From positions 671,040 to 735,039 of the forward strand of contig CP129472.1 of NCBI GenBank assembly GCA_030583725.1: a stretch of DNA of 64,000 bases, given 5' to 3'. Positions within the stretch are counted from its first letter, which is position 1, and each line of letters begins with the position of its first letter. Shown piece after piece: positions 1,596 to 46,434 of this stretch. This stretch comes from a bacterium. Its GTDB lineage: Bacteria > Patescibacteriota > Microgenomatia > UBA8517. The notes under the pieces were generated by a model that did not search any database, was not told the DNA's origin, and saw only the letters and a list, made by a program, of their open reading frames with translations. The translations under genes and the position numbers were made by a program.

Positions 1596-2636
1596 AATAA
1601 ACTCTAGTTCCTCCTTTAAGTAATTAAAGGTTTAAAAATTCGACTATATGCTGGAATAACTGAGAATCTTAAGCTAGTTGTTGACTTAGGTTTTAATTCG
1701 GATAATACTTAATTAATGCCCAAATTGATAACTGAAAATGCTTTAAGTGCAGTCAATCAGCAGGGAAGATCTCGTAAGAGAAACCCTCAGAGACTATATG
1801 TCGAATATCCTACTAGTAGTAAGAATGAAATGTCTGACATAGAAGCAACTTTATTGGGTATTTTATACACCGATGGTTGTCTATCTAAAAGGAGTAAGAA
1901 TGCATGGAGATTTTATCTAAGCAACACTTCTTACATAATTATACAAGTATTTAAAAATTGTATGATCAATCTTTTTAAATTAGATGCCAAAAGAGTACGA
2001 ATATCTAAAAAACAAGTTAATGGAAAACCTTTTTACAGAGCAGTTGTAGATAGTGCATCATCTGGAGAATTTTTAAATTCAAAATATGGTACATTTCGAA
2101 CACTAGTTTTTAAAAGTGAAGATGGTAAAGAAATTTATCCTTCGACAAAATTACCGTTTAACAAAAATTCTAATCTCAAAATAATGAGCAAGTTCTTAAA
2201 AGTTGCCTTTAGTTGTGATGGTGGCATAAATTTATACGTAGCGAAATCAAAGTTTGGATACAAATTTTTGATTAGGAATGTATATTTAGCTTGCAAGCAT
2301 CCACAATTACAGATTGATTATCACGAACTTTTGAAAGTTCTTGGTATCGAATCTAAAATTATTAAGGGAGATGGAAAAATACTTATTCAAGGCAGAAATG
2401 AGTTGAATAAGTTTAGAGAAAAAGTTGGTTTTATAGAAGGTGTAAAAATAACACAAAATTCTAAATTTTGGCAAGGTGTCGAAAAGCGGAATGTGTTAAA
2501 TATCGCAATTGGTTCTTACAAAAATCCGAAAAAGATAATCAATCTTTCGAGGTTTAGAGGATAAAGATATAGTCCGATCTCATAAGCGATTATGAGACTA
2601 CGTGTTGAATCGTAGTAAACAAACACTTAGTTTGTT
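1596..2636 (+). mobile_element. group I-like intron in 16S (E. coli ~pos 790 region) carrying a LAGLIDADG ORF
   Basis: 16S sequence breaks after GCGAAAGGGATGGGGT and resumes at ATAACAAGGTCTGTAGAGACCCCTGTAGTTC. 3' part contains GATAAAGATATAGTCCGA (S-element-like AAGATATAGTCC). Boundaries approximate (+/-10 nt). Confidence 0.7.
1716..2564 (+). CDS. LAGLIDADG homing endonuclease (two-motif) encoded within 16S intron 1
   Basis: Motif 1 LLGILYTDGCLSK and motif 2 KVAFSCDGGINLY. Lies entirely inside the intron. Confidence 0.7.
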   Translation: MPKLITENALSAVNQQGRSRKRNPQRLYVEYPTSSKNEMSDIEATLLGILYTDGCLSKRSKNAWRFYLSNTSYIIIQVFKNCMINLFKLDAKRVRISKKQVNGKPFYRAVVDSASSGEFLNSKYGTFRTLVFKSEDGKEIYPSTKLPFNKNSNLKIMSKFLKVAFSCDGGINLYVAKSKFGYKFLIRNVYLACKHPQLQIDYHELLKVLGIESKIIKGDGKILIQGRNELNKFREKVGFIEGVKITQNSKFWQGVEKRNVLNIAIGSYKNPKKIINLSRFRG

Positions 2637-2951: not shown

Positions 2952-3835
2952 AGATAACACTTTGCGACCCACCAAAGTAATTTGGTGTGAGAAATCTGAC
3001 TCATATCGGGGGAACTATTGACTACGGATTATATTAGGTATAATCTAAAATCATACAATCCCGAGGGAAGTCGAGAATTTTACATGCTGGAATTTACTGC
3101 TCGTAAGAATTTAAAATTAAAAGTTTCCAATCTTCAAATGGAGATACTTTTAGGTTGTTTGCTTGGAGATGCTTGTATAACTAAACTTGGAAAAGTTCAG
3201 TTTGAACAAAGTATCAAACAACTTCCATATTTAATGTGGAAGTATAAAAAGTTAAACAATCTCGCTTACGGCATACCAACTTTTGTTAGTAGGTATGACG
3301 CAAGATATGGAAAAGAATATAAAAGTGCCAGATTCTGGCTCAGACAATATTTCAGACCATTAAGAGAAGAATTTTACCCTGAAGGAAGTAAAATTTTCCC
3401 TATTAAGTTTTCAAAATACTTTACTAAACTCGCTTTAGCAGTTTGGTATATGGATGATGGAAATATATATAAAGGTAGAAATATTAAAATTTCTGCTGAC
3501 AATTTTGATTCAAAGAGTAGGGAGGTACTTAAAAACTTACTTTTAACTAAGTTTGGTTTGGAAAGTACAATTCAGAATAGTGGGAAAATAAGAATTTCAG
3601 CGAAATCTGTCAATAGATTTCTAGGAATTGTTAAACCATATATTCATTCCAACATGTTATACAAGATTCTTTGACCCCGTAACGACTGATCCCCATAAAT
3701 ATTATTTATTTAAGAGGGAGAGATACATGATAATACGCTTGTATCAAACGTCAGCTCCTACATAGGTTTAAAACTTAAGTAGGATGAAGGTATAGTCTAA
3801 ATTATAATTATTTTTTAAATAAAATAATTGGAGGT
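2952..3835 (+). mobile_element. group I-like intron in 16S (E. coli ~pos 1070-1080) carrying a LAGLIDADG ORF
   Basis: 16S breaks after CAGCTCGTGTCGTAAGAT and resumes at GTTCCCTTCAGTGGGGTAACGAGCGCAACCC. 3' part contains AGGATGAAGGTATAGTC (S-element-like). Confidence 0.7.
3018..3674 (+). CDS. LAGLIDADG homing endonuclease (two-motif)
   Basis: LLGCLLGDACI and LALAVWYMDDGN motifs. Inside 16S intron 2. Confidence 0.75.
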   Translation: MTTDYIRYNLKSYNPEGSREFYMLEFTARKNLKLKVSNLQMEILLGCLLGDACITKLGKVQFEQSIKQLPYLMWKYKKLNNLAYGIPTFVSRYDARYGKEYKSARFWLRQYFRPLREEFYPEGSKIFPIKFSKYFTKLALAVWYMDDGNIYKGRNIKISADNFDSKSREVLKNLLLTKFGLESTIQNSGKIRISAKSVNRFLGIVKPYIHSNMLYKIL

Positions 3836-10335: not shown

Positions 10336-10374
<39 letters not shown>

Positions 10375-11838: not shown

Positions 11839-12607
11839 AACATTGTAGTTACGTAGGTATCGAATCCTACCGTCTATAATGACGCAAAACTTGGCTATAT
11901 GCTGGAATATCCGTGAAACCGTAACTTACGTTGATTTAGAATCAATGAACGGTTGAAGTATCTGACGCTACCGTGTATTATTTATATATGGTGACAATGC
12001 GATCAGTGCGGACAATCAGCAGGAAAGGCCTAAATGAGGACAACATAGGATATTTCATCTCTGGATTTACTGAAGGAGAAGGAAGTTTCAATATATCATT
12101 ACGAAAGAAACCTGATTACAAATTGGGTTGGCAAGTAGTATTGAGTTTTAATATCTCACAAAAAGATGTTTCTCTTTTGAATTTGATTCAAGAAATATTA
12201 AATTGTGGAATTATTAAAACAAGAAAAATTGATAATCTTCATTCTTTTGATGTTACCAACGTAGATGACATAACTGAAAAAGTTATACCATTTTTTCAAA
12301 AATATCCATTACTTTCAGAATCAAAGAAAAGAAATTTTTCTATTTTCTGTGAAGTTTCTAACCTTGTAAAAAGAGGAGAACACAGAAACGAATCAGGACT
12401 TAAAGAGATTTTAAATCTTCGAGAAAAAATAAATGAAGGTAAAGGTAGAACTAGAAAATACAGTATAAATGATGTTTTTCCAATTTAGGAATCCCCAGAG
12501 ACTACACGCCGAGACTCAGTTTTTATCGAATTGAGTATGATATAGTCCGACCTCATTAAGCGATTATGAGAATTTGATCTAACGAATCAAAATTAACATT
12601 AGTGAAC
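11839..12607 (+). mobile_element. group I-like intron in 23S (E. coli ~pos 1917 region, between GTAACTATGAAC and TGTTCTAAGGTAGCG)
   Basis: Interrupts the conserved GTAACTATAACGGTCCTAAGG region. 3' part has GTATGATATAGTCCGACC (S element). Confidence 0.7.
11973..12488 (+). CDS. LAGLIDADG homing endonuclease (single-motif)
   Basis: FISGFTEGEGSF motif. 171 aa. Inside 23S intron 1. Confidence 0.7.
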   Translation: MYYLYMVTMRSVRTISRKGLNEDNIGYFISGFTEGEGSFNISLRKKPDYKLGWQVVLSFNISQKDVSLLNLIQEILNCGIIKTRKIDNLHSFDVTNVDDITEKVIPFFQKYPLLSESKKRNFSIFCEVSNLVKRGEHRNESGLKEILNLREKINEGKGRTRKYSINDVFPI

Positions 12608-12738
12608 TGTTCTAAGGTAGCGAAGTTCCTTGCCAGGTAAGTTCTGGCCCGCACGAAAGGCGTCACGAGTTAGCAACTGTCTTGAGGATTCACTCGGCGA
12701 AATTGCGTTGGCTGTGAAGACGCGGCCTAATCCCACTT

Positions 12739-12770
<32 letters not shown>

Positions 12771-26032: not shown

Positions 26033-26179
26033 TTTCAACTTCGTTGAAAGCTCTGGCTATTGAAACAAGCAAGCTGGGACCTTACCAAGTTTGCAACTTT
26101 GTCAACAAAGTTAGGTGGTTAGTTGCAAACTTTGTATATTTTAGTATTTATCTAGCCACTAAAGGGGGTTGATTATCGG

Positions 26180-29869: not shown

Positions 29870-29952
29870 ACTTGCAAAACCTAATGATATCGCCTGAGCT
29901 CCAGTTAAGGCCCCTGTACCCCAACCAAATGGGCTTGCAATTATGCCGGCTA

Positions 29953-31365
29953 AAGCAGTACCAGTTTTCCAAGTTGTACAGAGCTAGCTACCTGTTCTGC
30001 TCCGTATCCCGTCATTTGCCTCATACATCCATAGCTTGCACTTATTCCATTCTGATCAACGCAAGCTTGGACTGCTTCTTCTGAGCTACTATATCCAAGC
30101 TGTTGCCATTGAAAAATATTGCCTGAATCAGAAAACGCTTGCAAATATCTCCCTATGATTGGTGCATTATATACTTGGTTCAACTTTTTATTACATTCTG
30201 CTGTCTGATCGTGGGTTAGTCCTTCACGGTTACAATCAGCAAAGTTGTTTGTCTGTTGCATATTTACAGTTGGTTTGGCCAACTGTGCCACGTCTTTTGT
30301 GTGCAAACTTTGTGTTATGGCATACAGTATTTCGGTGGTGTCTGCATTATTAATTGTAGATGTAACAGTTCTTAAAAATCCATCGCCTAGTTTTTCTACA
30401 GTTGGCCTGTAAGTTTGGTAGGCAACTGGTATGGTAACAGCATCAATTACTTTTTGATCTTGGTCTTTTGCAATTGTTGTTAAGTCACGTGTTGTTCCTG
30501 AATCATCACGGTTAACTTCAATGCTAACAGATGTACTTGCTATGCAAGCTCCGTTTGTACAACCATTCTGGCAATTTTGACTTACCCAGATTCCATTTTG
30601 AGAACAAGTTCTTAATGTGTTTCCACTACATTCTTTTTCTCCGCTGCTACATTCTTTGGTGCTAACTGTTACAGAACCAGTAGATGAAGTTGAACAGGAC
30701 GTTGATGTGACAACTACCTCCTCACTACAAGTTGTTGTTTTCCATATTTGACAATAGACATTGCTTGGGCAGTTACTACCATCACCACAAAAAGAGGAAA
30801 CTAGTGAGACATTACAAAAACTACCTTCAGTGTTATTGCTCTGTTGACTTATCTGATTTTGGGCTTGTTGTTGAACCTCTTGTTTGTACGTTTCCTGTGC
30901 GTATGATGGTACATTTTCAGGTTTGACTTGGCTTAAGGATCCTTCTCCTACTTTCCATCTACCGTCTGATCCACAAGTTGCATAACTTCCGATTCCTCCA
31001 TAGAGAACAACATCACCAGCAGAATATTGTTTTCCGTTGGCATCACAGGTGGTACCGGTTGAGGATGTTGTGCTGTTCGTGGTGACTGCAACCTCCTCGC
31101 CCTTGTAGTTTATATTTACACCACACTGGTTGTTACAATAAACTCTACCTTTTTCTTTTCTACATTCGTCAAAACAACTGTTACCTGAAGCCTTTTCTGA
31201 GATATTTAGGGAAAAATTCTTGTTTGTAGTAACTGCAGTACCCACAATTAAAGTAACAACCAAAAACAAGACACTAATAATACTCAAAGGGTCAATAACA
31301 CCCTTAATATATTTTTGAGATTTAGGCATTAATTCATTATATAATAGAATATGGGCTGTTATCAC
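29953..31365 (-). CDS. membrane-anchored Cys-rich extracellular protein (471 aa)
   Basis: N-terminal TM VLFLVVTLIVGTAV. CFDECRKEKGRVYCNNQCGVNINY module, paralogous to the N-terminus of the LPXTG protein at 18909. Numerous Cys pairs and Ser/Thr-rich stretches. Confidence 0.6.
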
Positions 31366-31471: not shown

Positions 31472-33343
31472 TTACTCTTGTGGGGGTAACTCAACTTGAG
31501 GCTCTATAATTGGTTCAGGTAGAGATTCAGGTTGTGTCAAAGACTCTATTTTTTCCAGTTCTTTTAGTGCTGTTTCGTAGTTTAGATCATCTTTGCCCAA
31601 TAGATTTAAGACTATTTGTATATTTTCCCTTGCTTTTTCTGTTTGCCCTGCCTCTTTATATGAAATTGCCAAGTTGTAATATGAATTAGCATAATCTGGT
31701 TTTGCAAGAACTGCCAACTTAAAAACTTCAATAGCTCTTTCGTAGTCACCAAGAGAGTGGTAAAGTCCGCCCAATCTAATTCTTAATATTGGGTTAGTTG
31801 GGTCAAGTGAAATTGCTTGTGTAAGAGTTTGGATTGCAAAAGTGTCAGCACCTTGTGCAAACGAAATTATTGTCTGATAGATATTTGAGAGAGCATCCCA
31901 GTTTGAGGATTTATTAGGACCAATAGAAACAGCAGCCTTACCTTCAACAATTGATTGTTGAATTAATTGTGATATTGTTTCTTTGTCTTGGTCTGTTAAA
32001 TCTTCTTTTCTAGCTATATTTTCAGCTAAAGCCAAGTTAATTCCTGCTGACAGCTGGTGATATTTGTCTGAATATGGGTTTATCTTAACAGCCTTGTTAA
32101 TCAATTCAAAGGCCATAACTCCTTGGCTGTTACCAATTTCTTTAATAGTCTTGTTAAATAATAGTTCTGCATAATATGCACGTCCAAATAGATAACTAGC
32201 CCCAATTAAAATGAAAATAATAGGGGTAACCAATAAAACAATTGCATATCTTTTTACAAAGAAAGCAACTTTACCATCTTTAACCTCTGCACTTAATGCA
32301 AGAAATAAAAATAAAAGAGGTAAGATTGACATAGATAGGGGAAGACTAATAAAACCAAGTGAAAGAATTGCAAGTGATACAAATAATGAATTTTCAAACT
32401 CAGGTTTTCTAAATGCAAGATACATTAAGGTTAAAAGAGTAACAAAACCTAAAATACCTGTTTCAGTAAATAAAGTTAGTAATGAACTTGTACTCTGGGT
32501 ATATTTTAAATTCCAGTTTGGACTCAAGTTAAACGCAACGGGTCTAAATTGATTAAATGCTTGTAAGTAGTTTCCTGGCCCAGAACCTAAGAGGGGACTT
32601 ATTTTTAATGAATCGATTGCTACTGACCAACCAGTTTTAAAATCTAGTATTTTAGGAGTAGTTTGTCTATTTGGCAAAATTAAATAAATTGAAGTAGAAA
32701 TACTAATCAAAAAGACAACAGATACAATTAGTGAAAGAATCTTTTCTGAAATGTCAGTTTTGTTAAAAGCTTTCTTGATCAATATAGGAAGTAAAGCTAT
32801 TAAAAAGACAATTAAGTTCAAGGTACTACCTAGGGGGTTAAAAAATTGTAATTTAATAACCTCTGGTAGTTGTGGAATTAGGTTGGTTATACCTAAAAAT
32901 GAGGCAATTTGAATTGTTGATACCGTCAAACCAGATGCCAAAATAACATTTACTAAATTGTTTTTATCCTTTTTACTAATTTGGTTTATCAAAAAGTAGT
33001 AGATACCTGCAATTAATACAAAACTTGCAGTACCGGGCAAAAGAAATGCATCAACTTTATTTGCGCTAGAGAATAGACCTGAAAGTAGGATAGCTACCAT
33101 AAAAACTATAACTGCAAAATCAAGCTTGCTGGAGTTAAATTCAACACTTCCCTTGATAATTGACTTAGTAATTTTTAAAAGCACTAAAATTACTACAGAC
33201 AACACTCCTAATAATAATTTAGGTAGTTCAAACGCATTTTCAAAAAATGGAAAGAACAATAGGGGAAACAAAAACAAACTTATATATATAGTGTATTTTT
33301 CAATAGCTGTTAAGCTGGATTTAATATTGTCTAAATATTTCAT
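31472..33343 (-). CDS. polytopic membrane protein with C-terminal TPR repeats (O-antigen ligase/Wzy-like + TPR architecture)
   Basis: ~10 predicted TM segments in the N-terminal 400 aa. C-terminal TPR-like repeats (YERAIEVFKLAVLAKPDYANSYYNLAISYKEAGQTEKA). Confidence 0.5.
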   Translation of the reverse strand: MKYLDNIKSSLTAIEKYTIYISLFLFPLLFFPFFENAFELPKLLLGVLSVVILVLLKITKSIIKGSVEFNSSKLDFAVIVFMVAILLSGLFSSANKVDAFLLPGTASFVLIAGIYYFLINQISKKDKNNLVNVILASGLTVSTIQIASFLGITNLIPQLPEVIKLQFFNPLGSTLNLIVFLIALLPILIKKAFNKTDISEKILSLIVSVVFLISISTSIYLILPNRQTTPKILDFKTGWSVAIDSLKISPLLGSGPGNYLQAFNQFRPVAFNLSPNWNLKYTQSTSSLLTLFTETGILGFVTLLTLMYLAFRKPEFENSLFVSLAILSLGFISLPLSMSILPLLFLFLALSAEVKDGKVAFFVKRYAIVLLVTPIIFILIGASYLFGRAYYAELLFNKTIKEIGNSQGVMAFELINKAVKINPYSDKYHQLSAGINLALAENIARKEDLTDQDKETISQLIQQSIVEGKAAVSIGPNKSSNWDALSNIYQTIISFAQGADTFAIQTLTQAISLDPTNPILRIRLGGLYHSLGDYERAIEVFKLAVLAKPDYANSYYNLAISYKEAGQTEKARENIQIVLNLLGKDDLNYETALKELEKIESLTQPESLPEPIIEPQVELPPQE

Positions 33344-33454
33344 ATTTTATAAGTGTAACAAGATTTTTTTAATTTGTCTTGTTTAAAACTGCCTCAAGTT
33401 CATGATCATATCACTGCAGCTCGATTATCCACCCCGTAAAACGGGGCAGGCTGG

Positions 33455-34687
33455 TTAAAAACTTTTCAAAAGTAAAAAATCAGAGATGCTTAAATGCTTA
33501 ATTCCATCTGTGTTTCCACTTGCCATACTATCCATTGATACTACAAATTTAGGATAATTATCCTTGATGCTCAGTAAATTACCAAATTCTCTTGCCCTGA
33601 CTTTTTGAGAGGACAATAAATATGTCACTTGAACATAAACCCTTTTTCCTGAATGCTCTCCGACAAAATCAACTTCTGTTTTTCCTAATTGACCAACGTA
33701 AACAACATATCCTAATTCGATAAGTTTTGAATAGACCAAATTTTCAAGAATCTTGTTAATATCGGTTTGCTTAAAATTTGAGACAACATGTTTTAAACCT
33801 AAGTCTTCAAAATAATATTTTTCGCCAATCTCAAATATTTTTTTGCCTACAATATCGATTCGCTGTGTTTTATTTATAAAATAGCTTCCTGTTATAGACG
33901 ATAGATAATTTAATACAGTATTTGGCGATAGATTGATATTTTGAGATTTTAAAAAGTCGCTAATCTTTTTGGCAGATACAATAGAGCCTAAATTATCTGA
34001 CAAGTATTCAATTAATCTATTTAAGAAATTGATATTTCGAATTGCATACCTTTTAACAACATCTTTTAAGATTACAGTGTCATAAACACCCTTTAAGTAG
34101 CCATAAACTTGGTCGTCATTTAGCTCCAAATTAATTAGATAGGGGAGTCCGCCATATTTTATATATTTTTCCAAAGATGGGTTGTCATTTTCCAGCTTAT
34201 GAAACTTCAAAAATTCACTGTAAGACAAGGGATGGACTCGAAATTCAATAAATCTCCCTGAAAGTTTGCCTGCGATATCAGATGATAACATTTGGCTGTT
34301 ACTGCCTGTTAAAAATATGTCAAACTTTTTGCTTGAAAAAAAGCTTCTAATCGCTTTTTCAAAATTTTCTATTTCTTGTACCTCATCAATAAACAGATAA
34401 TTCATACCTATCTTTTTTAGAGGGGTAATATATTTAATAAGATCGTGATAATTTTTAATCTTGTCAAATTCATAGCTTTCTTTGTTTATATAGATGATAT
34501 TTGCCTTTTTGTTATTATTTTTAATAACATCAATTATTTCAAGCATTAAATAACTTTTCCCAACCCTTCTTTGGCCAGTAATAACTTTGACGATATTTTT
34601 ACCAATAAACGGCCTTATTAAGTCAATATACCTATCTCTAGTCATATATATTTTATTTGTATCTAAAACTTCTGTATTTTTTATCAT
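33455..34687 (-). CDS. AAA+ ATPase of the AAA_14/DUF4143 family
   Basis: Walker A ITGQRRVGKSYLM. Walker B LFIDEVQ. Characteristic DUF4143-type C-terminal half. Confidence 0.7.
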   Translation of the reverse strand: MIKNTEVLDTNKIYMTRDRYIDLIRPFIGKNIVKVITGQRRVGKSYLMLEIIDVIKNNNKKANIIYINKESYEFDKIKNYHDLIKYITPLKKIGMNYLFIDEVQEIENFEKAIRSFFSSKKFDIFLTGSNSQMLSSDIAGKLSGRFIEFRVHPLSYSEFLKFHKLENDNPSLEKYIKYGGLPYLINLELNDDQVYGYLKGVYDTVILKDVVKRYAIRNINFLNRLIEYLSDNLGSIVSAKKISDFLKSQNINLSPNTVLNYLSSITGSYFINKTQRIDIVGKKIFEIGEKYYFEDLGLKHVVSNFKQTDINKILENLVYSKLIELGYVVYVGQLGKTEVDFVGEHSGKRVYVQVTYLLSSQKVRAREFGNLLSIKDNYPKFVVSMDSMASGNTDGIKHLSISDFLLLKSF

Positions 34688-34712
34688 TTCTTTTAAGTAT
34701 AACTATAACTTT

Positions 34713-34943
34713 TTAGTTAGTCAAGACGGGTTCACTTTCTATTGATTCCAGTTCAATAATCCACCAGTTAAACTCAACGTCTGATTCGAGTGTTTCAGAA
34801 AAACCAACCTCAAAGTAACCAGTATCTTTAGATTTTACATATAGCACTTTGTTTTGTGTAGAAGCTATTGGTGTTATATAGATTAGAGTATTAAGAGATA
34901 CTTTGTTATTGTTTATTCTAACCTTCCTTGTGTTTGCAGGCAA
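34713..34943 (-). pseudogene. orphan copy of the C-terminal ~70 aa of the giant surface protein (no ATG; TTG at most)
   Basis: Translation ...ATAGKAVLPANTRKVRINNNKVSLNTLIYITPIASTQNKVLYVKSKDTGYFEVGFSETLESDVEFNWWIIELE is ~95% identical to the end of the 37082..44188 product. In-frame sequence upstream runs into a stop with no ATG. Confidence 0.55.
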
Positions 34944-34968
34944 AACTGCTTTTCCTGCTGTTGCATGG
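34752..34968. repeat. direct repeat copy A (~215 bp; 146-bp core identical to 37140-37285)
   Basis: Manual alignment with 37097-37313. Core CAGAAAAACCAACCTCAAAG...GTGTTTGCAGG identical. Flanks have a few mismatches. Confidence 0.85.
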
Positions 34969-34977
34969 TGGTGATTA

Positions 34978-35802
34978 TTAACTTTTTATAATTAAGCGAT
35001 TAGGATTAAATATATCTTTCCAAGTCATGAATCTGCCGTTTTTTTTCAAATCACTATCCAATTTTCTATCAACTGAGTAATTTGAACCAATGTCATAATC
35101 TGGGACAGTAAGTGAACCAAACCTCTTTGCTAATGTAAGTTTGTTATTTTCTGTATAGATCATTAAGTACGATGGAATTGGATTGAATTTGTTTAAAGCT
35201 AATAAAGCATACATAAATTTACTATTAGTTTCTCTTGCTTGTGATGATCCGCCTCCACCTCGGTGAGCGTATTTTTTATTACCATCTTGCCAAATGAAAA
35301 GATTATCAAATAGTGTACGCCAATCAACCCAATTCAAAGGTTCAGGAAGATTGTAATATCTTTCCCTTTTATATTCACACCGATTTTTAAATAATTTAGT
35401 ATGATTCTTATTTTTTAAAAGAATCTCATCTTTATATTTTGGTTCAATTTCTTTTTTAAAAATTAAATCATCGTTTCGATCGTACTTATCTAACCAGCTT
35501 CTATATACTTCATTAACTTCATCTTCTCCATATTCTTCATATAGTTTTTTAAAAAGTAGTTCATGATAAAGGGTTTGTATAGGAATTTTAGTTAATTTGA
35601 CATATTTCTTTTTATGTCTAAGTTCCCATTTTAATCTTTCGATAAATATCGAAACAACATAAGGATTTTTATTTTTTATTTCTTTGATAATTTCCCCGTG
35701 GTTATTAAAATTTTCAGGAGACCAAAGAACATCCTTCAATAAATTATGATCAAAATTAGAAGAAAGTACAGTCTTTTTATTATTTATATAAATATGATTC
35801 AC
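34978..35802 (-). CDS. hypothetical protein (274 aa), Lys/Tyr-rich, with a GGGG stretch
   Basis: ORF immediately downstream (4 nt) of the DUF4143 ATPase at 35807..37018. No family recognised. Confidence 0.5.
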   Translation of the reverse strand: MNHIYINNKKTVLSSNFDHNLLKDVLWSPENFNNHGEIIKEIKNKNPYVVSIFIERLKWELRHKKKYVKLTKIPIQTLYHELLFKKLYEEYGEDEVNEVYRSWLDKYDRNDDLIFKKEIEPKYKDEILLKNKNHTKLFKNRCEYKRERYYNLPEPLNWVDWRTLFDNLFIWQDGNKKYAHRGGGGSSQARETNSKFMYALLALNKFNPIPSYLMIYTENNKLTLAKRFGSLTVPDYDIGSNYSVDRKLDSDLKKNGRFMTWKDIFNPNRLIIKS

Positions 35803-35806
35803 GGTT

Positions 35807-37018
35807 TTAAAGATATGTCCAAGGAATTACAGTAATACGATCACTTAATTTGTATGGTTTTTGATCCGTTGTAATAACATATCCTTTTTCTAGTTTGTTA
35901 TCATCTAAAAAAGTATTAAGACCAGATAAATCTTTTAATCCGATGTTTTTACCTGACTTAATTTCTATAGGAATAACTTTGTTATTAGTCTCAATGATTA
36001 AATCTACCTCAAGACCACTTTGTGTTCTCCAATAATATAATTTAAAATCACCTTTTAAATTTTGCCTTCTAAACATTTCTAAAATTACAAAATGTTCAAA
36101 TAATGAACCTCTGTCAATATTGGTTAAATTTGCTTCAAGTGGAATATCGGCAACTGCATTTTTTACACCTATGTCAAAGAAATAATATTTCGGCGTTTTG
36201 ACAATTCTTTTTCTTGCATTTTTAATAAATGGAGGTAATTGATGAATTATGAGAGTATCTAATAATATTTGATAATATTCTTTAACAGTAATTACTGATA
36301 TCCCTGTTTGGTTTGAAAGTGAAGTAAAATTAGGGTTACCTCCTGATTCATATGCTGCAAGTTGTAAAAATGAGCTAAATAAACCTAGATTTCTACTTAT
36401 GGCTTCAGCTCTAATTTCTTCTTCTAAGTAAATTGTTGAATAACTATGGAGTAATTGTTTTCTTTGAGGAGCGGGGATAGAAACAACCTCAGGAAGAGAA
36501 CCATAAACCATGCAGTCATTAAGGCTGAAATTATTATCTTTCGTAATAATATTTGGCAATCCTATTTCTGGAATATAATTTTTGATAGTTATGCCAAGCT
36601 CTCCCCACATAAGTGGGTCAAGATGTTGAAGGATTAACCTTCCCGGCAGAAGGTTTGCATGCGACCTTCTCAATTTTCGTGCAGAGGATCCAGTTAATAT
36701 AAATTTTTTATGATGTTCATCAATTAGATATTGGATACTATCAAAAAGTGCAGGAACTTTTTGAATCTCATCAATATAAATAATATCAGCAGTGTTAGCT
36801 AATTCATATTCCTGAATAAGTCTGGCTGGTTCCTTTTCGTAAATGATTCTTAAGGCCGGATTTTGGAGGAGGATTGAGTCGAAATGATGTTTTTTGGACA
36901 AGACTTCTCTTATTAATGTCGATTTTCCAACCTGACGGGGTCCAAGCAACAAAATAGATTTGTTGTTTTTTAGTGTCTGATTTAGATTCCTTGAAATATG
37001 CCTAGTATATAAATACAT
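35807..37018 (-). CDS. AAA+ ATPase of the AAA_14/DUF4143 family (second copy)
   Basis: Walker A LLGPRQVGKSTLI. Walker B IYIDEIQ. DUF4143-like C-terminal half. Confidence 0.7.
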   Translation of the reverse strand: MYLYTRHISRNLNQTLKNNKSILLLGPRQVGKSTLIREVLSKKHHFDSILLQNPALRIIYEKEPARLIQEYELANTADIIYIDEIQKVPALFDSIQYLIDEHHKKFILTGSSARKLRRSHANLLPGRLILQHLDPLMWGELGITIKNYIPEIGLPNIITKDNNFSLNDCMVYGSLPEVVSIPAPQRKQLLHSYSTIYLEEEIRAEAISRNLGLFSSFLQLAAYESGGNPNFTSLSNQTGISVITVKEYYQILLDTLIIHQLPPFIKNARKRIVKTPKYYFFDIGVKNAVADIPLEANLTNIDRGSLFEHFVILEMFRRQNLKGDFKLYYWRTQSGLEVDLIIETNNKVIPIEIKSGKNIGLKDLSGLNTFLDDNKLEKGYVITTDQKPYKLSDRITVIPWTYL

Positions 37019-37081
37019 GTGTAAATCATATACCTACCTATATGATTTGTCAAGAAAAACATATCTCATTCATTAACAGCA

Positions 37082-40000
37082 CTAAATACCTTCTAATTCA
37101 ATAATCCACCAGTTAAATTCAACGTCTGTTTCTAGTGTATCAGAAAAACCAACCTCAAAGTAACCAGTATCTTTAGATTTTACATATAGCACTTTGTTTT
37201 GTGTAGAAGCTATTGGTGTTATATAGATTAGAGTATTAAGAGATACTTTGTTATTGTTTATTCTAACCTTCCTTGTGTTTGCAGGTAAAACTGCTTTTCC
37301 AGCTGTAGCATTTGAGTTTATTTCTCCTTCTACGATTGTTGCAGATTCTGTAGCAGTAGTATCAATATTATTTGCAACAATTATATTATTAATAGTTAGG
37401 TTACCTGCAACTTCAACATTACCCAAAAATTTAGTGTTTCCATCAATATCAACTGTTATTTTTCCTGCCATTATTTCAAGTGGGGTAGCTGCAAGAGATT
37501 GAATTTGTAGTGGCATATCAAGTGACTCTATTTTGTTGACAGTTAATAGGTCAGAGACAAAAAGTGATGATATTGCAGCTTGACCTGTAACATATAAGTT
37601 GTTTGCTTGTATACTTTCTGCAATCAAGTTAGTAAATGTACCATCTTCAAAAGAAGTATCAGTGCTCCAATTTTGACTTTCTGCCAATAAACTTTGGTTT
37701 GTTTCAACCTCACGCAATAATTCTTCAATTTCTGAAAGTCTGGTTGACTCAATATCATCTGCATATAATGTTCCTGAAATTGTTGCATCACCATTTACCG
37801 CTAATTGATTGGATTCAACAGTACCTTCAAAGTTTGCATTACCCAAAGAGTCAATTGATGCTACTTCTTGATTATCTTGTCCATTAATAACTAATCTTGC
37901 AGATTCAGAAGCTGAGAGATCAATGATTAAACTAGAATCTGCAATTGGGGAGATGATATTAGTTTTAATCTCTGGAGTAATTATGCCTGCAAAAATACCA
38001 ATCTGGGTAACTACTCTTTCTGTAACCACATCAATTAGTTCTCTGGTACTATATAGATAACGGTAAACTCGACTCTCCATGGACGTTGGATTTGGAGCGT
38101 AAGAATTATCAATAATTATAGTAATTGTGTCTTTTCCAGTGTTTGGTTCCCAGTTTTCAGTTGCTTTACCAATTGTACGGTCTCCAGCCATAGCTAGGGT
38201 GGCCAAACCCGGTGTTTGGGATGAGGTTAGTTCTGCTCCTGCAAAAATAGCAGGGGAGTTAGGGTCAATTTTGACCGGAATTCGACCAGCCAAACCCAAA
38301 AGCCTTCTATTTTCGGCTTCAATGCCTAAAGTTTTGCCTGCCTTGGTAGAAATAGCTCCAATTAGATTTGGGTCGTTAATTGATTTTGCCTTAGTAAGTA
38401 TAGGAACACTAAACTCATCCATTTTTCCGGTTATGGAAACTAAGTCTCCTGCACCAATTGAGTCATCATCAACTGTGTACCATTCTGCCAAATCAGCGCC
38501 AAAAACTACGGCATCAAGACGTAATTCCTGCTCTTCACCGGTGTAGTTATAAAGGCGGACGGTGTTGGTGTCAACTTGCTCAATTTTGTAGCCATCGTTG
38601 TAAGTAAGATATACATTTTCCACTTGAGGCTGATAGGAGTTGTTGGTGGTGGAGAGTATGATCCTATACTGTAAATACTCGTTCGGGGTAGAAGTTATTT
38701 TGGAAAAGTTATTATCAGTTAACAACTTTTCAGCTCTAACATTATCAATATATATAGTATTTGAGGATGCAATTAAGTTTGTAAACCTTAATTTTGTAAT
38801 AGCATCTCTTGCACCCGATTGTATGTCAGACAAATCCCAATATACCTTTTGCCAAACGTCAGCTGCGTCAATTTTTACAAACTCTTCCTGTTCCGTGCCG
38901 GCACTTTCTCCCATACCCACTTTTACAGTACTGCCAGTTTGCGAAGCTCTGATCCAAAAAGTGAGATAGTCGTAGCCGGAAAGATTAGCTGAAGTGATGG
39001 TGTCTTCAGCGTAACCACCATTGGTAGAAGAAGTAAGCTTGGTGAGATTACCGGCAGTTGCCTCATCTTCATCTTCAAACTGATCAACGTTTCTGGTGAC
39101 GTCACCATCGGCCACAGTCAAGTTAGTACCTGTCCACTCGGTATGGGTATTACCATCACTTAAATCAAGGTAGTTGGAGGTAGCAGTAAACGGTTTCCAA
39201 GCTTCCCAAGTTCCGTCAGTTGGGGACAGGGTAGAACCACTTCTGGTTTGGAAGGAAACTTTACTATATGGCACAATTGGAGTTTCCCACCTGATTGACT
39301 CAAGACTGGCTGAATTTGGGGTGCTTATTACTTTACTGTGATACAAACCATAGGTATGGTAGCCAGAGAGTGATGTGTTGGAAGCAGGGGAACTAGTTCC
39401 AGAAATCGATGACGAGTATTCAATTGCGATTCTGCCACTTCCCCCCGCTCCTCCGTGACTACCGGCGTAGCCACTACCAGCACTTCCACCCGTAGCGCTT
39501 ACCAGGGAAGATCCCAGTGTTAGGTTCTTGCCCATTATTTTGACGGAACCACCACTTGCCCCACCTCCACCTGTTCCGTGTGTAACACCGTTTGAACCCG
39601 CATTGCCGTTGGCCCTGATAGAACCGGTGACAGTAATATTTTCTGCGCTGACAGTTACTATTCCCCCAGCAGTACCGCCCGCACCACCACTCCCGGACCC
39701 CGTACCGTCTGAGTAACTTGCCCCACCTCCACCGCCAGAACCTAAATAAAGTTTTGCTAAGGTGGTGGAACCGTAGGTAGTACCAGCCAGTGTGCCGTAG
39801 GTACTTGTGTTACCAGCTGTGCCATATGATCCTCCTCCACCGCCCTGTCCTCCATTGTAAACGCCTCCGGCGCCACCGCCGATATTATTATTACCCGAAC
39901 CTATGGAATTCAAATTTGTACCAACACCATTTGAACCATTAGTCCTGTTTGGTGAAGGTCCGCCAGCTCCACCGGCGTAACCTAAACCGGTAGCGTGGAT

Positions 40001-43000
40001 ATTCCCGGCTACGGAAACTGTGCCAGTGGCTCTGAAAAACATCACACCGCCCTTGGCACCACTAAAAGCCGACGGAGTAAAGTTCATGGAGGCGTTGACG
40101 GTGACATTGTTGTAATTGGGAACTCTTTGGATCATAACTAATTGGTTGGTTCCACTGGTAGTGCCGATATTTGAATCACTACCGGCAATGTCACCGTAAT
40201 AATTAAGCTTTGAGGTTTTGAAGGTAATAATGTTTGATGAAACACTTAAAATTCGAAGAGTTTCAAAGTTTCCGACATTGTCATAGGCACTCACAATTCC
40301 TTTTAAGTTGATAAGTAATATCTCATCTCCGGCAGCAAGACAACCGCTGGCAGGGGTAGTGCTTAAAGTAGCAGTGGTTGCAGTAAGGGTAGTTACCGAG
40401 TAATTCACCGCATCGCCACCGTCGGCACAACTTCGGCCGGAAATCAGGCTGGTTGTATTTATATTTGTGTTACCTGAAACCGTAATATTCCCATCTCCAC
40501 CTGTGCCGGTATCGATAGCTGGAGTAATCTCAATATTTGTCAGTTTAGTTTGAGTGCGGGTGAGATTGCCTGTGGTAGTATATGAGTTACCATTGCCGGA
40601 ATTGTATAAGTCTGTAATTTCAGCAGCAGATAATTTTTTCTTCCAAAAACCTACTTCGTCTATTATGCCATCAAAAAAGAGTTCTTCGGTTGTATATCGA
40701 GCTCCAATTCTAAAGTTGGCTACAGTGTCAGATACAACACCAGTTTCTGAGGCTGAATCAACTGTGCCATTGTTGGCTTGGATACTGCAGGTGTCGGCTG
40801 TGGCATCATGCCAAGCGGTTAAAAAATACCAAGTCGCGGTGGAAGGAGCCCCGAGGTTATTAGCGGTGGCAGTACAAACGGTAGTGCCAGACGAATTGGC
40901 AAGAATAAACTCAAACCGGCTTGAGGTGTTGTTGTAATAGAGCTCATATTCTTTGACGGATGAACTCTCTGACTTGCTGACGATAGTTCGGTTAGCTCCT
41001 GTGCTTTCTAGGTTCACCCAAGCGCTGATGGTGAAATCAATGTCTCCTGTTGAAAGTGAGGTGTTGTCAGTAATTTCAAAAAATTCACTATTAGTGCTTT
41101 CCAAGTCTGCTCCATTATTAACTTTACCCGTACCTGAAGCGGTGGTGTTGTTGTCTGTCAGGTTGTTACTTCCATAACTATCATTACGAGTGGTAGCGCT
41201 AGATCCAGCACTGGCTTCATTCATTGTCCAGAAGCTGATTAAGTTATTAATAAGGGTACCTTGGGAATCAACCAAGAAAGTTTTTGCAGAAGCATCATCA
41301 AATTCGTTTTGAAGTGCATGTTTTACGGTTTGGGTGGAATTGGTGATAGTTTTCCAAAGACCTGTTATTTTATCCTTAATCCAAGCCGTTAAAGATAGGT
41401 CGTTGGTATTTTGGTTGTGGGCAATTTCAATATAGTTTTGATTAGCGACAGCGGCGTTGGTTTGGGAATACTTGGTCATATCCAGGGCAATACGATGCCA
41501 CGCACTATCAGATCCATATAAAAAGAGGTGGTCAGTAGAAGAACTTCCTGCTGAGTTATTATCATAAAAAATTGTTCCTTCAATAGTATTAGTAGTTGAA
41601 GAAATATTACTTGCTAGAGTTATGGCGCCATCGTTGTGAATTGTAAATTTAGTAGTTCCAGACGCACTTGCTGTAAAAATATCTCCACCTTTGTCATTAT
41701 TAACCATTAAGGCTGCCATTCCGTTATTAACTGTGTTGTTTACCCACCAGACACCATTGTCTAGGATGTTGGGACTATTAACTGCTGAAGCATCATCTGC
41801 AAATATAATAGTTGCAGTACCATCTGGGTTTGAAATTATTCTTCCATCTAAATATAAAACTCCATCAACTTCCAAATCTCCACTGATTAAAACGTCATCT
41901 GATGTAGTAAAACCATGTCCTGTTGTCGCTGTTCCAAATCTGGAGTAGGCAACAGGAGAGGTACTACCGACTTGTAATGATCCGTCAAGAGCAATTCTTG
42001 CACCAGTTGGATCAACTAATAAATATCCATTTGAATCTAATGTAAAACCAGAATAAACAGTTCCGTCAGTGTAAGTTAATCTTAATTGTTCACCTGATGT
42101 TGCCAGAGAATCAAGTTTTGCATCTGGTCCAGTTGTCCCAATACCGACGTTGCCGGCAGAGGTGTCAACATAGAGTTGGTTGGTGTTAACAGCAAAATCA
42201 CCGGTTGTGGCAAGGGAGACATTGAGGTTTTGACCTGCAGTTGGGGTCAGAGTTAATGACCCACCTGTTCCGGTGCCAGTTAAAGTCATTCCGCCTGTCG
42301 ATCCAATTGTACCTGACCAGTAGTTACTGGCGTCATATCCAAGTCTAAGTTGTTCCGTCGTTTCGTTTATGGTGAGTTTCGCCGTAGGCGATGTCGTCCC
42401 AATACCGACGTTGCCATTTTCTACAATCAGCCCATAATTATTAGTAGCTCCTGAAGCAGAGAAGTAACCACCGATATTAATTGATGTTGTTCCTGTGTTG
42501 GTGACATTTGAGTAAAGTCCATATGCAGTGTGTGATGCATTGGCGTTAGTTCCACTTCTTATAATGTCTAGTATTTTAGATGAACCACTTGCTCCACCTG
42601 CTGTAGAAGTAGAGGAGAGGTCAAATAATGTCCCTGTGGTTAATGAAGATGAAGCAAGAGAAAAAGCATCTGCTGCTGTGACTGAGTTAAAAGTAAATGC
42701 AGTGGTGTAACCTGCATGGGCTAGGGATAGATTTGCAGTTGGGGTTAGTAAGTCTGACCAAACACTACTTCCACCCCCACCACCTAAACTACTAAAATCA
42801 GTCACACAGTTTGTTTCTCCATCACCTGTACAAAACTTGGTAGCTTCAATTGTCCCATCTGAGACTGGTGTTCCAAAAGTAGAAATTCCAGAAGTCACAT
42901 ATAAATCAGCCCCAATAGTAGTTAATCCTGTTGAGTCGACAGAAAATTTTGAAGTTGGTGTTGCTCCTGATAGAAAATTAATAAAATAGTAACCAGTGGC

Positions 43001-44188
43001 ATTACTGGCAATTGTTCCTGCATATAGTGATCCAGAAGTTATGTTTGCATTTGTTGCATTTACAAAACCATTTGCACCACCACCTGGTGCTGCTCCTTCA
43101 AAAATTAGGTCAAGAGTTCCAGTGCCATCTGGATTGATGGTTATGATACCGTTTGATGTATTTGGAGTGGTTAAGGTTAGTGCTTGTCCTTCTACTGCAA
43201 AGGTGCCTGAAGTAGATTGTATTTTAGGTGATGCGGAAGCTAAAACAACTGTTCCTGTTGAATCAATGTATGGAATTGTAGATGTTCCTGTCCCCGCGGG
43301 AAAGCCTTGTAGCGTTTCTGAGTTAATAGCATATGCAACTGTTGCAATTTGTATTCTTGGTGTTGCTTCAGCGTCTGTTCCAACGGTTACACCTAACCAA
43401 ATGTCTGCATTTTCACTAAAAACACTTGAAGCAATTTCTGCTCCACAAGATGAACCAAGTAGGGTTGAAAATATACCATCTTGATCGGGTGTAATTGAAC
43501 AAGTTCCAGAATCCCAAAGTTCAGTTCCCCCGGTTGAAACTGCGTATAACTTAAAAACCATATTTGTTGCTACAGTTTCCGGGTTTCCTAGGTCATCAGT
43601 TAACCTTCCTTGAAAGGATAAAAATCTGTTTGGTCGTTCAAGAGCGGTAGGGAAGGCAAGTGACCTGTCTGTTGAGTAGAAAACCTGATCATATACCGCA
43701 TAACCTGAAAGTGATGAAAATAAAATTAAAATTGCGATATGAATATAACTTGCAAGTGGATATGAATGATACTTTCTGTACCAGTTTGGTCGGTTGAAAA
43801 ACAAACTTGTTAAAACATTCTTTAACTTAGGTTTATTAATAAACTTTGAAATTATTCTTTCTTGCCAAGACTTTGAAATTGTTCTAAAACTAGACACATT
43901 TTCAACACCACTCATAAAGTTACTACCAGTGAAGTTTGAGTAACTTCTAAGTGTTGAAAGACGCCTATTTAAAGTTGAAAGTGGGGTAGTAAGTCTTTGT
44001 GAGTTAATATACTCCCTAATTAAATTTGAGCTAACCTTGCGATCACCAGCCCAAGTTAAAAAATTAACAATATCTGATTTGTAGTATTTTAAAGATTTAA
44101 GGGAAACTCCGTGTAATTTTAAATATCTTAAAAAATTTTCAATAACTTTGGTTTTGTTTACAACTTCTGAATTATTCATTTTCCGCAA
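37082..44188 (-). CDS. giant (2368 aa) membrane-anchored surface protein with an N-terminal integrase-SAM-like segment, TM anchor, repeated NVGIGTT(S/G)P motifs, a LamG/ConA-like lectin domain and a Gly-rich region
   Basis: Residues ~15-90 (IENFLRYLKLHGVSLKSLKYYKSDIVNFLTWAG...LSTLRSYSNF) follow the tyrosine-recombinase N-terminal SAM-like pattern. TM YIHIAILILFSSLSGYAVY. NVGIGTTSPTAKL and NVGIGTTGPDAKL. FDGIIDEVGFWKKKLSAAEI (Laminin_G_3-type). Long GGxGG tracts. Confidence 0.8.
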   Translation of the reverse strand: MRKMNNSEVVNKTKVIENFLRYLKLHGVSLKSLKYYKSDIVNFLTWAGDRKVSSNLIREYINSQRLTTPLSTLNRRLSTLRSYSNFTGSNFMSGVENVSSFRTISKSWQERIISKFINKPKLKNVLTSLFFNRPNWYRKYHSYPLASYIHIAILILFSSLSGYAVYDQVFYSTDRSLAFPTALERPNRFLSFQGRLTDDLGNPETVATNMVFKLYAVSTGGTELWDSGTCSITPDQDGIFSTLLGSSCGAEIASSVFSENADIWLGVTVGTDAEATPRIQIATVAYAINSETLQGFPAGTGTSTIPYIDSTGTVVLASASPKIQSTSGTFAVEGQALTLTTPNTSNGIITINPDGTGTLDLIFEGAAPGGGANGFVNATNANITSGSLYAGTIASNATGYYFINFLSGATPTSKFSVDSTGLTTIGADLYVTSGISTFGTPVSDGTIEATKFCTGDGETNCVTDFSSLGGGGGSSVWSDLLTPTANLSLAHAGYTTAFTFNSVTAADAFSLASSSLTTGTLFDLSSTSTAGGASGSSKILDIIRSGTNANASHTAYGLYSNVTNTGTTSINIGGYFSASGATNNYGLIVENGNVGIGTTSPTAKLTINETTEQLRLGYDASNYWSGTIGSTGGMTLTGTGTGGSLTLTPTAGQNLNVSLATTGDFAVNTNQLYVDTSAGNVGIGTTGPDAKLDSLATSGEQLRLTYTDGTVYSGFTLDSNGYLLVDPTGARIALDGSLQVGSTSPVAYSRFGTATTGHGFTTSDDVLISGDLEVDGVLYLDGRIISNPDGTATIIFADDASAVNSPNILDNGVWWVNNTVNNGMAALMVNNDKGGDIFTASASGTTKFTIHNDGAITLASNISSTTNTIEGTIFYDNNSAGSSSTDHLFLYGSDSAWHRIALDMTKYSQTNAAVANQNYIEIAHNQNTNDLSLTAWIKDKITGLWKTITNSTQTVKHALQNEFDDASAKTFLVDSQGTLINNLISFWTMNEASAGSSATTRNDSYGSNNLTDNNTTASGTGKVNNGADLESTNSEFFEITDNTSLSTGDIDFTISAWVNLESTGANRTIVSKSESSSVKEYELYYNNTSSRFEFILANSSGTTVCTATANNLGAPSTATWYFLTAWHDATADTCSIQANNGTVDSASETGVVSDTVANFRIGARYTTEELFFDGIIDEVGFWKKKLSAAEITDLYNSGNGNSYTTTGNLTRTQTKLTNIEITPAIDTGTGGDGNITVSGNTNINTTSLISGRSCADGGDAVNYSVTTLTATTATLSTTPASGCLAAGDEILLINLKGIVSAYDNVGNFETLRILSVSSNIITFKTSKLNYYGDIAGSDSNIGTTSGTNQLVMIQRVPNYNNVTVNASMNFTPSAFSGAKGGVMFFRATGTVSVAGNIHATGLGYAGGAGGPSPNRTNGSNGVGTNLNSIGSGNNNIGGGAGGVYNGGQGGGGGSYGTAGNTSTYGTLAGTTYGSTTLAKLYLGSGGGGGASYSDGTGSGSGGAGGTAGGIVTVSAENITVTGSIRANGNAGSNGVTHGTGGGGASGGSVKIMGKNLTLGSSLVSATGGSAGSGYAGSHGGAGGSGRIAIEYSSSISGTSSPASNTSLSGYHTYGLYHSKVISTPNSASLESIRWETPIVPYSKVSFQTRSGSTLSPTDGTWEAWKPFTATSNYLDLSDGNTHTEWTGTNLTVADGDVTRNVDQFEDEDEATAGNLTKLTSSTNGGYAEDTITSANLSGYDYLTFWIRASQTGSTVKVGMGESAGTEQEEFVKIDAADVWQKVYWDLSDIQSGARDAITKLRFTNLIASSNTIYIDNVRAEKLLTDNNFSKITSTPNEYLQYRIILSTTNNSYQPQVENVYLTYNDGYKIEQVDTNTVRLYNYTGEEQELRLDAVVFGADLAEWYTVDDDSIGAGDLVSITGKMDEFSVPILTKAKSINDPNLIGAISTKAGKTLGIEAENRRLLGLAGRIPVKIDPNSPAIFAGAELTSSQTPGLATLAMAGDRTIGKATENWEPNTGKDTITIIIDNSYAPNPTSMESRVYRYLYSTRELIDVVTERVVTQIGIFAGIITPEIKTNIISPIADSSLIIDLSASESARLVINGQDNQEVASIDSLGNANFEGTVESNQLAVNGDATISGTLYADDIESTRLSEIEELLREVETNQSLLAESQNWSTDTSFEDGTFTNLIAESIQANNLYVTGQAAISSLFVSDLLTVNKIESLDMPLQIQSLAATPLEIMAGKITVDIDGNTKFLGNVEVAGNLTINNIIVANNIDTTATESATIVEGEINSNATAGKAVLPANTRKVRINNNKVSLNTLIYITPIASTQNKVLYVKSKDTGYFEVGFSDTLETDVEFNWWIIELEGI
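37097..37313. repeat. direct repeat copy B (3' end of the giant gene)
   Basis: See copy A. Confidence 0.85.
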
Positions 44189-46348: not shown

Positions 46349-46434
46349 ATATTTTTCTTTCTTTGTTGTATCTAATATTTTATTGAAATGATAAAGTAAC
46401 TTCATCATTTTTGTACGATATTGTCAACTTGAAG

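Follow-up and report, generated by a model that had tools for sequence, protein, structure and literature searches.

Why does the last part of a giant surface-protein gene stand twice on one strand of a bacterial genome, with two complete genes in between? The question is raised by a 64,000-nt stretch of contig CP129472.1 (GCA_030583725.1, locus tags QY322_), here called the window, which comes from a bacterium of the candidate phyla radiation (CPR). The gap between the giant gene and the conserved gene of a TPR/Wzy_C-like membrane protein holds two genes for ATPases with AAA_14 and DUF4143 domains (ATPase1 and ATPase2), an open reading frame (ORF) for a protein of 274 residues and further copies of the giant gene's end. 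In our reading, this gap is probably a recombination hotspot, a small defence island, which grows by homology-anchored displacement of the 3' end of the giant gene. In the CPR (Patescibacteria), which have very small genomes, few mobile elements that can be recognised and no genetics in culture, the acquisition and swapping of defence genes is largely obscure.

For comparison, 49 loci from species-representative genomes were fetched by a profile search with the giant protein's C-terminal domain; the relatives among them are Microgenomates and Woesebacteria, which together with the introns of the rRNA operon assigns the organism to the CPR. Two loci discussed below are L011 (GCA_030699075.1) and L013 (contig JAXMKP010000053.1 of GCA_034372665.1). 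The proteins encoded by the cargo were scanned with Pfam, NCBIfam, PHROGs and PADLOC, and the predicted structure of the 274-aa protein was compared with PDB and BFVD. Copies of the giant gene's end are called R1, R2 and R3 and the cassettes X1 (younger) and X2 (older); coordinates are collected in Table 1.

Results

Close relatives examined keep the gene order Big_1 - giant gene - TPR/Wzy_C - p471 - p1229 ... SIMPL - LysM/M23 - Rho. In at least 19 related Microgenomates species, the stop codon of the giant gene and the start of the TPR/Wzy_C gene lie 0-230 bp apart, often overlapping, in contrast to 3739 bp in the window. Given this empty site in the relatives, ATPase1, the 274-aa gene, the orphan gene end and ATPase2 are all insertions with respect to the ancestral state, and the empty-site comparison that the earlier note had proposed thus finds the segment between the repeats absent in these species. 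Besides the 19 empty sites there are at least 6 occupied ones, with cargo differing between genomes. In the window, every gene from the giant gene to the TPR/Wzy_C gene is on the minus strand, in the order giant gene with R1, ATPase1 and 274-aa gene, R2, ATPase2, R3 and TPR/Wzy_C gene.

R1 and R2 form a direct repeat of 221 nt with 9 mismatches (95.9% identity). The earlier note had placed the copies at 34752-34968 and 37097-37313, which is correct to within a few bases, and its identical core of 146 bp is exactly 146 nt without a mismatch; the ORFs it had named for the giant protein, ATPase1, the 274-aa protein and ATPase2 were also found as described. The mismatches are confined to the edges, with six towards the stop codon and three at the upstream edge, and the probability of a clean run of 146 nt is 4e-4 if the 9 mismatches are assumed to be placed at random. 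Chance is not an issue as the source of the repeat, and no second repeat of this kind occurs within the window. The clean core between edges that have diverged by 12% looks like a crossover or conversion tract.

At the protein level, R1 codes for the giant protein's last 74 residues (...NATAGKAVLPANTRKV...EFNWWIIELEGI before the stop), while R2 encodes the same 74 residues with two substitutions and a different tail, ending in ELESIESEPVLTN. This tail is joined to ATPase2 in another genome as well. On the upstream side, R1 differs from R2 at A37286, T37301 and T37307, and its own tail is ...GAATTAGAAGGTATTTAG; R2 is flanked upstream by ...TAATAATCACCACC and downstream by the tail ESIESEPVLTN. 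The distal copy had been described as a C-terminal fragment of about 70 residues lacking an ATG, and indeed the longest ORF in R2 (34713..34943, 76 aa) begins with TTG; NCBI annotates it as QY322_04090.

The repeated segment is a distinct part of the giant protein, which has an N-terminal Phage_int_SAM_1-like domain, a LamG domain and a weak K1-lyase_C-like match at the C-terminus, and ends in ...EFNWWIIEL. Across orthologues the protein is a mosaic of a conserved N-terminal part of ~400 aa, a hypervariable middle and a conserved C-terminal part of ~200-300 aa. The last 74 residues share 60-89% amino acid identity among orthologues and the middle only 15-45%; by this comparison, the last 74 codons are the best-conserved stretch in the C-terminal half of the gene. 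Residues 16-86 (window 43900-44188, minus strand) resemble the SAM-like core-binding domain of tyrosine recombinases, the catalytic domain of which is absent. This SAM-like domain falls within the N-terminal ~400 aa, the most conserved part of the protein across orthologues, and it is a curious observation that a domain of DNA-binding type is encoded by the same gene whose 3' end is the recombination hotspot.

A third gene end, overlooked in the earlier note, was found behind ATPase2. R3 consists of GGTGGATAATCGAGCTGCAG, the stop codon TGA and TATGATCATGAA (33399-33433 reads GGTGGATAATCGAGCTGCAGTGATATGATCATGAA), corresponding to ..WIIELQ with its stop plus 3' untranslated region. Of its 35 positions, 34 agree with the real gene end of L011/L013; by chance, 0 such matches are expected. 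The giant gene of L064, which is among the closest relatives by similarity of the TPR/Wzy_C gene, has the same ending. Three nested gene ends thus follow each other in order on one strand of the window, and with R3 behind ATPase2 two insertion events are stacked; that ATPase2 is itself an inserted cassette had also been overlooked. From this arrangement, the event nearest the giant gene (X1) is read as the younger one. X1 begins with a new gene tail (...ELEGI and stop), which is followed by a promoter-like region belonging to the cassette and by the genes of ATPase1 and the 274-aa protein; its end lies 11 nt past the stop codon of the 274-aa ORF.

Close to R3, a joint connects the terminal motif's left half (TTTAACTGG / TTTAACCAG) to CCTGCC..., as it does in two further genomes (window 33441-33460, minus strand; L012 ~3528-3620; L064 1539-1560). 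In the window, the left half and the right-half remnant are separated by 19 nt, which form the hairpin CCCCGTTTTACGGGG, and in L012 by 74 nt. The split motif may have been left behind by an insert in the WW codons that was later lost.

Table 1. Coordinates of the giant gene, its end copies and the inserted cassettes in the window
Feature	Position	Strand	Remark
Giant surface-protein gene, left flank of the hotspot	37082..44188	-	2368 aa
R1, functional 3' end of the giant gene, last 74 codons, repeat copy 1	37091..37311	-	core 37140-37285
Cassette X1, read as the younger insertion	34967..37090	-	ATPase1 + 274-aa gene
ATPase1, AAA_14 + DUF4143 (PD-(D/E)XK-type) ATPase-nuclease	35807..37018	-	PADLOC PDC-S01 candidate
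274-aa ORF	34978..35802	-	no family match
R2, displaced orphan copy of the last 74 codons	34746..34966	-	core 34795-34940
Cassette X2, read as the older insertion	33434..34745	-	tail codons SIESEPVLTN and stop + ATPase2
ATPase2, AAA_14 + DUF4143 ATPase-nuclease	33455..34687	-	PDC-S01, sub-model differs from that of ATPase1
R3, 35-nt remnant of an older gene end	33399..33433	-	match to L011/L013 gene end
TPR/Wzy_C-like membrane protein gene, 623 aa, conserved right flank of the hotspot	31472..33343	-	start 0-230 bp from the giant gene's stop in relatives

The internal junctions of the locus were matched at 99.9-100% identity in Logan assemblies of three other sequencing runs (L001, L002 and L003-L005); the junction between the body of the giant gene and R1 lies outside this confirmation. 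L001 covers window positions 37169..34911 and L002 37111..34911, and L003-L005 extend from 34824 over 12.5 kb to the Rho gene. The unitigs of L001 and L003-L005 stop exactly 30 nt (k-1) inside the identical core, as does L002 at the R2 end only, which is how a true repeat is expected to behave in a de Bruijn graph.

Full-length matches to the PADLOC family PDC-S01 were obtained for both ATPases (ATPase2 with an E-value of 1.6e-141 to PDLC04787, ATPase1 with 1e-77 to PDLC04790), in agreement with the proposal of the earlier note that the cargo is a candidate of defence type. PDC-S01 comprises ATPases fused to a PD-(D/E)XK domain and is a very common defence candidate (PMC12988326), and DUF4143 has been assigned to the PD-(D/E)XK superfamily (PMC3424549); the defence function of the cargo is thus a putative one. 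ATPase1 and ATPase2 share 25% identity, so that the second is indeed as diverged as had been noted. By sequence they are unrelated paralogues with separate histories and not copies of one duplication, and the contrast between near-identical repeats and diverged ATPases, which had been taken as a sign of a recent event or of gene conversion, is therefore uninformative.

The 274-aa protein belongs to a small family restricted to the CPR. Its AlphaFold2 model is confident (pLDDT 92), and neither a significant structural match (PDB, BFVD) nor a family match (Pfam, NCBIfam, PHROGs, PADLOC) was obtained; it has no homology to the N-terminus of the TPR/Wzy_C gene and no counterpart gene in the ATPase2 unit. 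No integrase, transposase or resolvase was detected in any cassette or among the window ORFs scanned, and no toxin or immunity domain in the C-terminus of the giant protein or in the downstream genes. Searches of IMG/VR with the conserved 35-mer, the profile of the C-terminal domain and the profile of the 274-aa family gave nothing relevant, and a viral origin was rejected on these grounds.

Cassettes are shared between genomes. The ATPase2 cassette is 90% identical at the nucleotide level between the window and L012 over 1276 nt, in contrast to 65-76% for the adjacent TPR/Wzy_C gene and gene end. In L066, the pair of ATPase1 and 274-aa gene is conserved (90% and 75% amino acid identity, 83% at the nucleotide level), which bears out the earlier suggestion that the two are cargo together; there, homology ends at the stop codon of the 274-aa gene, which is followed by a Fic gene and no orphan. 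An AbiE cassette is 99% identical between L064 (1622-2934) and L011 (6507-7821), whereas the giant genes of the same genomes share 77%. This indicates that the AbiE cassette moved horizontally, and recently, into the same hotspot. The AbiEii/AbiEi cassette occurs in either orientation, that of L012 being opposite to that of L064 and L011.

In L006 and L065, the 274-aa gene occurs alone in a second variable region beside SIMPL, amid HEPN/MNT and BrnT/BrnA toxin-antitoxin genes. The window has this second variable region at 26033-31365, between the SIMPL gene and the genes of the large p1229/p471 proteins; in relatives it holds members of the 274-aa family, HEPN/MNT, BrnT/BrnA, Fic and another DUF4143 ATPase.

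The stacking of gene ends recurs in other genomes, which had likewise escaped the earlier note; three further genomes show this architecture with different cargo. Stand-alone 'proteins' of 148-152 aa that resemble the giant C-terminus are displaced gene ends in other CPR genomes; a search with the C-terminal 119 aa, an approximate query that was off by two N-terminal residues, gave 7 proteins, the giant protein itself not among them. Next to the DUF4143 ATPases, the cargo includes the known families AbiE and diversity-generating retroelement (DGR), the latter with a reverse transcriptase (RT), a template repeat (TR) and a variable repeat (VR). The gap of L011 reads gene end - TR - RT - Avd-like gene - 401-aa target (minus) - short remnant - orphan of ~440 nt - DUF4143 ATPase (minus) - AbiEii/AbiEi (minus) - remnant, with four terminal motifs in total. 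That of L012 reads gene end - DUF4143 (minus) - orphan of ~440 nt - AbiEi/AbiEii (plus) - 22-nt remnant - ATPase2 homologue - TPR. Orphan 3' fragments are thus stacked in the window (R2, R3) and in L011 and L012 (2-4 gene-end remnants each), and the gene-end repeats of the latter two are 72-88% identical. Across events the duplicated gene ends are 22-35 nt, 221 nt or ~440 nt long and differ also in their upstream boundaries. The gap of L036 contains two DUF4143 genes, one of them truncated, and that of L064 contains AbiE. L064 was the one further locus obtained when metagenomes were scanned with the 35-nt gene-end motif, too few for site statistics. In L036, the last ~66 codons of the giant gene (4862-5218) are in another frame than the gene body (328-5028), for which a frameshift, a recombination joint and a sequencing error are possible explanations.

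The RT cargo of L011 and L013 is a genuine DGR, since every TR/VR mismatch is at an adenine of the TR on the coding strand of the target (L011 1144-1256 versus 3191-3303; L013 2137-2248 versus 4184-4295). The target is a separate gene of 401 aa with no Pfam match. The TRs of the two genomes are identical and the VRs different, which suggests recent activity. The 4437-bp contig L013 has a terminal overlap of 141 nt (1-141 = 4297-4437) and closes as a circle of 4296 bp, consisting of one giant-gene 3' fragment and the DGR cargo; it is 97% identical to the integrated version in L011. The overlap lies inside a cargo gene, so the 4296-bp graph cycle is unbranched in that assembly. L013 could represent a cassette in excised or tandem form, or else a cycle of the assembly.

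Discussion

Homology-driven cassette exchange next to a variable surface protein, one of two mechanisms considered in the earlier note, fits the evidence best. According to the proposed mechanism, DNA arriving from a related cell would bring foreign cargo behind the giant gene's last 70-150 codons, which are conserved. The conserved terminus would serve as anchor for homologous recombination of the RecA type, and the other end would be joined illegitimately, i.e. by homology-facilitated illegitimate recombination; alternatively, a circular molecule of gene end and cargo would integrate via a single crossover. In either case the incoming copy would become the working 3' end, and the resident 3' end would be moved downstream as an orphan and then decay. 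Since the identity of the terminus is far above that of the middle of the protein, the terminus is the only usable homology anchor that borders the gap. Such a displacement has probably happened at least twice in the window. The older event would then have brought ATPase2 and left R3, and the younger one ATPase1 with the 274-aa gene, leaving R2; we regard this sequence of events as rather likely. The route may have been linear, with one-sided homology, or may have led through a circular intermediate; the circle of L013 lends some support to a circular or tandem cassette form. The DNA could have entered by natural transformation. A ComEC-like gene pair with Competence and metallo-beta-lactamase domains (53891-55782, plus strand) and RadA/Sms (16419-17732, plus strand) are encoded in the window, which makes DNA uptake and recombination plausible.

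Several points weigh against this explanation. One illegitimate joint must be assumed for each event, and no convincing microhomology or core remnant is seen by eye at the joint of X1 and R2. Long duplicated gene ends are present in just 3 of ~52 loci, so the process is rare or its products are short-lived. R3 and the right-hand remnant of L012 have a common breakpoint directly before GGGTGGAT, which could reflect common descent or a preferred site-specific cut. A hairpin-containing direct repeat of ~21 nt, GAATTACAAGGTCCGACCTTG, flanks the DGR cassette of L011 (~900-950 and 4750-4790). The Logan unitigs fit a purely integrated form and a mixture with excised forms equally well, and exact-protein look-ups for a cassette-free or circular variant of the species gave only unitigs that end at the repeat; neither of these two variants was observed. 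As to the cargo, PDC-S01 is only a candidate defence family, experimentally unvalidated (PMC12988326). The GAATTACAAGGTCCGACCTTG repeat of L011 also reads as an alternative gene end (..ELQGPTL and stop); a terminator, an old gene end and a recombination site are all conceivable.

Some of these points would be expected if a recombinase encoded elsewhere in the genome acted in trans and, in the manner of an integron or integrase, inserted the cassettes at a defined core in or just after the FNWWIIEL codons, with the gene-end copies as att-type sites and ...TGGTGGATHATHGA... as the candidate cut core. All left junctions of cassettes lie directly after the WWIIEL(E/Q) codons, two remnants have the GGGTGGAT breakpoint, the joint of TTTAAC(TG/CA)G to CCTGC is common to three loci, and a sequence of 35 nt including non-coding bases has been kept between distant genomes; the hairpin repeat around the L011 cassette and the circular contig L013 would suit such a system as well. 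However, the native tails of empty sites diverge right after WWIIEL too (ELEENYE, ELQNNNN, ELKNDII and others, each before the stop), and therefore the common left junction may just mark the point up to which the genes are homologous. That breakpoints are shared can be accounted for by inheritance of a single old joint. Neither the cassettes nor the scanned window ORFs include a recombinase, the length of the duplication and its upstream boundary change from event to event, and the AbiE cassette was found in both orientations. We therefore consider site-specific insertion unlikely.

The repeat could also have misled the assembler. In this case, the chromosome would consist of the giant gene, one R copy and ATPase2, and a separate circle of R, ATPase1 and the 274-aa gene (2345 bp) would have been threaded in via the core. 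Both situations give the same de Bruijn graph, the core is exactly where the Logan unitigs stop, and with L013 a circular contig of gene end and cargo is known from another genome. On the other side, the source is a single contig of 841,695 bp, which implies that the repeat was resolved; the same local junctions occur in three other runs, and the 2.3-kb unit carries no replication gene. Moreover, L011 and L012 have the integrated architecture with repeats too diverged for assemblers to confuse, so the phenomenon itself is real, and an artefact at this locus appears very improbable. A tandem duplication of gene end and DUF4143 ATPase, after which the ATPases diverged and gene conversion acted on the ends, would account for two units that are alike in order, strand and spacing (2345 versus 2370 nt). 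It is effectively refuted by the low identity and different PDC-S01 sub-models of the ATPases, by the lack of a match to the 274-aa gene in the second unit and by separate homologues of the ATPases, with a 90%-identical copy of ATPase2 at the same site in another species and a 90% amino acid homologue of ATPase1 elsewhere. The presence of RT and Avd-like genes right after the homologous gene end in related loci raises the thought that R1 and R2 are the TR/VR pair of a DGR which targets the C-terminus of the giant gene. For the window this reading is refuted: the substitutions are mixed instead of adenine-specific, 146 nt are identical, and no RT is found at the locus or among the other scanned window ORFs. 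The real TR/VR pair of L011/L013 lies elsewhere and targets the separate 401-aa gene.

Displacement of the giant gene's end, our preferred reading, has well-described relatives. Arrays that arise by 3'-end displacement are known from Rhs, contact-dependent inhibition (CDI; cdiA-CT/cdiI orphans) and effector-immunity clusters of type VI secretion systems (T6SS) (Kirchberger 2017, PMC5361080; Jackson 2009, as cited in PMC5361080); for the orphan arrays of all three, illegitimate recombination facilitated by homology has been put forward (PMC5361080). As in these systems, a conserved region of the gene provides the anchor, the incoming DNA brings its own end, the old end is shifted as an orphan and an array of orphan 3' fragments builds up downstream. 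Unlike there, where the displaced tip is a variable toxin domain with a cognate immunity gene, the tip is conserved here. No toxin domain is set off by a demarcation motif, the C-terminus giving only the weak K1-lyase_C-like match, and the tips are followed by AAA_14 + DUF4143 ATPases of 400 aa, AbiE or a DGR instead of a cognate immunity gene. The cargo thus consists of stand-alone genes of putative defence type, and the host is a CPR bacterium. Displacement of a 3' end is a known style of evolution, which appears here in a new lineage and with new cargo.

Integrative elements with a replacement 3' end, such as tRNA/tmRNA islands or e14 and phage 21 in icd of E. coli, resemble the locus in other respects. 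The insert supplies a near-identical 3' end and so leaves the target gene intact; it is enclosed by a direct repeat of the gene end, the distal copy of which is a pseudo-end. These elements, however, carry a tyrosine integrase of their own and integrate at a fixed att core, whereas here no recombinase was found in the cassettes or the scanned window ORFs and the duplicated length ranges between 22 and ~440 nt. The left junctions lie where gene homology stops, and the one breakpoint shared by two remnants is maybe due to common descent. Of the resemblance to an integrative element claimed earlier, the insertion with a replacement 3' end is thus upheld by the empty sites, but a self-mobile element is not.

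The locus also has traits of a defence island, as its flanks (giant gene and TPR/Wzy_C) are kept in at least 19 species around variable content of defence type and horizontally shared cassettes; ordinary hotspots, in contrast, lack a ladder of duplicated flanking-gene ends which separates the cassettes. Similar to an integron, new cassettes enter beside a fixed anchor and push older ones back, a repeat separates them and a circular form is possible (L013). Integron features are otherwise missing, with no IntI, attI or attC, both orientations, own promoter-like sequences and separators that are coding-gene fragments of variable length.

A more far-reaching and rather doubtful idea is that the gene-end repeats are working parts of a cassette-exchange platform without a recombinase, i.e. 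portable homology arms that need RecA only. A cassette between two copies of the terminus would loop out as a circle of gene end and cargo, comparable to L013; neighbouring CPR cells would take up the circle through their machinery for competence, and one crossover at the terminus would insert it again. If true, this would be an integron-like sharing of defence genes that requires RecA and a conserved terminus, with DUF4143 ATPase-nucleases as the commonest passengers and perhaps helpers.

For the CPR, the locus offers a concrete and recurrent route of gene acquisition, in which a conserved terminus beside a permissive gap would act as landing pad and the ladder of displaced gene ends would record the order of acquisition. 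It would extend C-terminal displacement beyond polymorphic toxins, to a conserved end with unrelated cargo. The hotspot can be used for mining new candidate defence genes of the CPR, such as those of the 274-aa family, for which no relatives with a known fold can be detected. For annotators it calls for caution, as QY322_04090 and similar 'hypothetical proteins' of 76-152 aa are displaced gene ends and not genes.

Other features of the window

The 16S rRNA gene (855-4157) is split by large insertions with LAGLIDADG homing endonucleases (ORFs 1716..2564 and 3018..3674, plus strand). Insertions of this kind are typical of rRNA introns in the CPR. The 23S rRNA match (9840-13222, plus strand) spans 3383 nt as compared to 2925 nt of the model and contains an ORF (11973..12488); this gene probably carries an insertion too. 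Between the 16S pieces and tRNA-Ile/tRNA-Ala/23S, on the opposite strand, lies a gene for a 771-aa coupling protein of the VirD4/TraG/TrwB type (5970-8285, minus strand), an odd position for an ATPase of type IV secretion. A homologue of CopG/BrnA-type antitoxins of 133 aa is encoded close to where the giant-gene neighbourhood starts (46007-46408, minus strand), with no obvious toxin partner called next door; its homologue in L065 is paired with BrnT.

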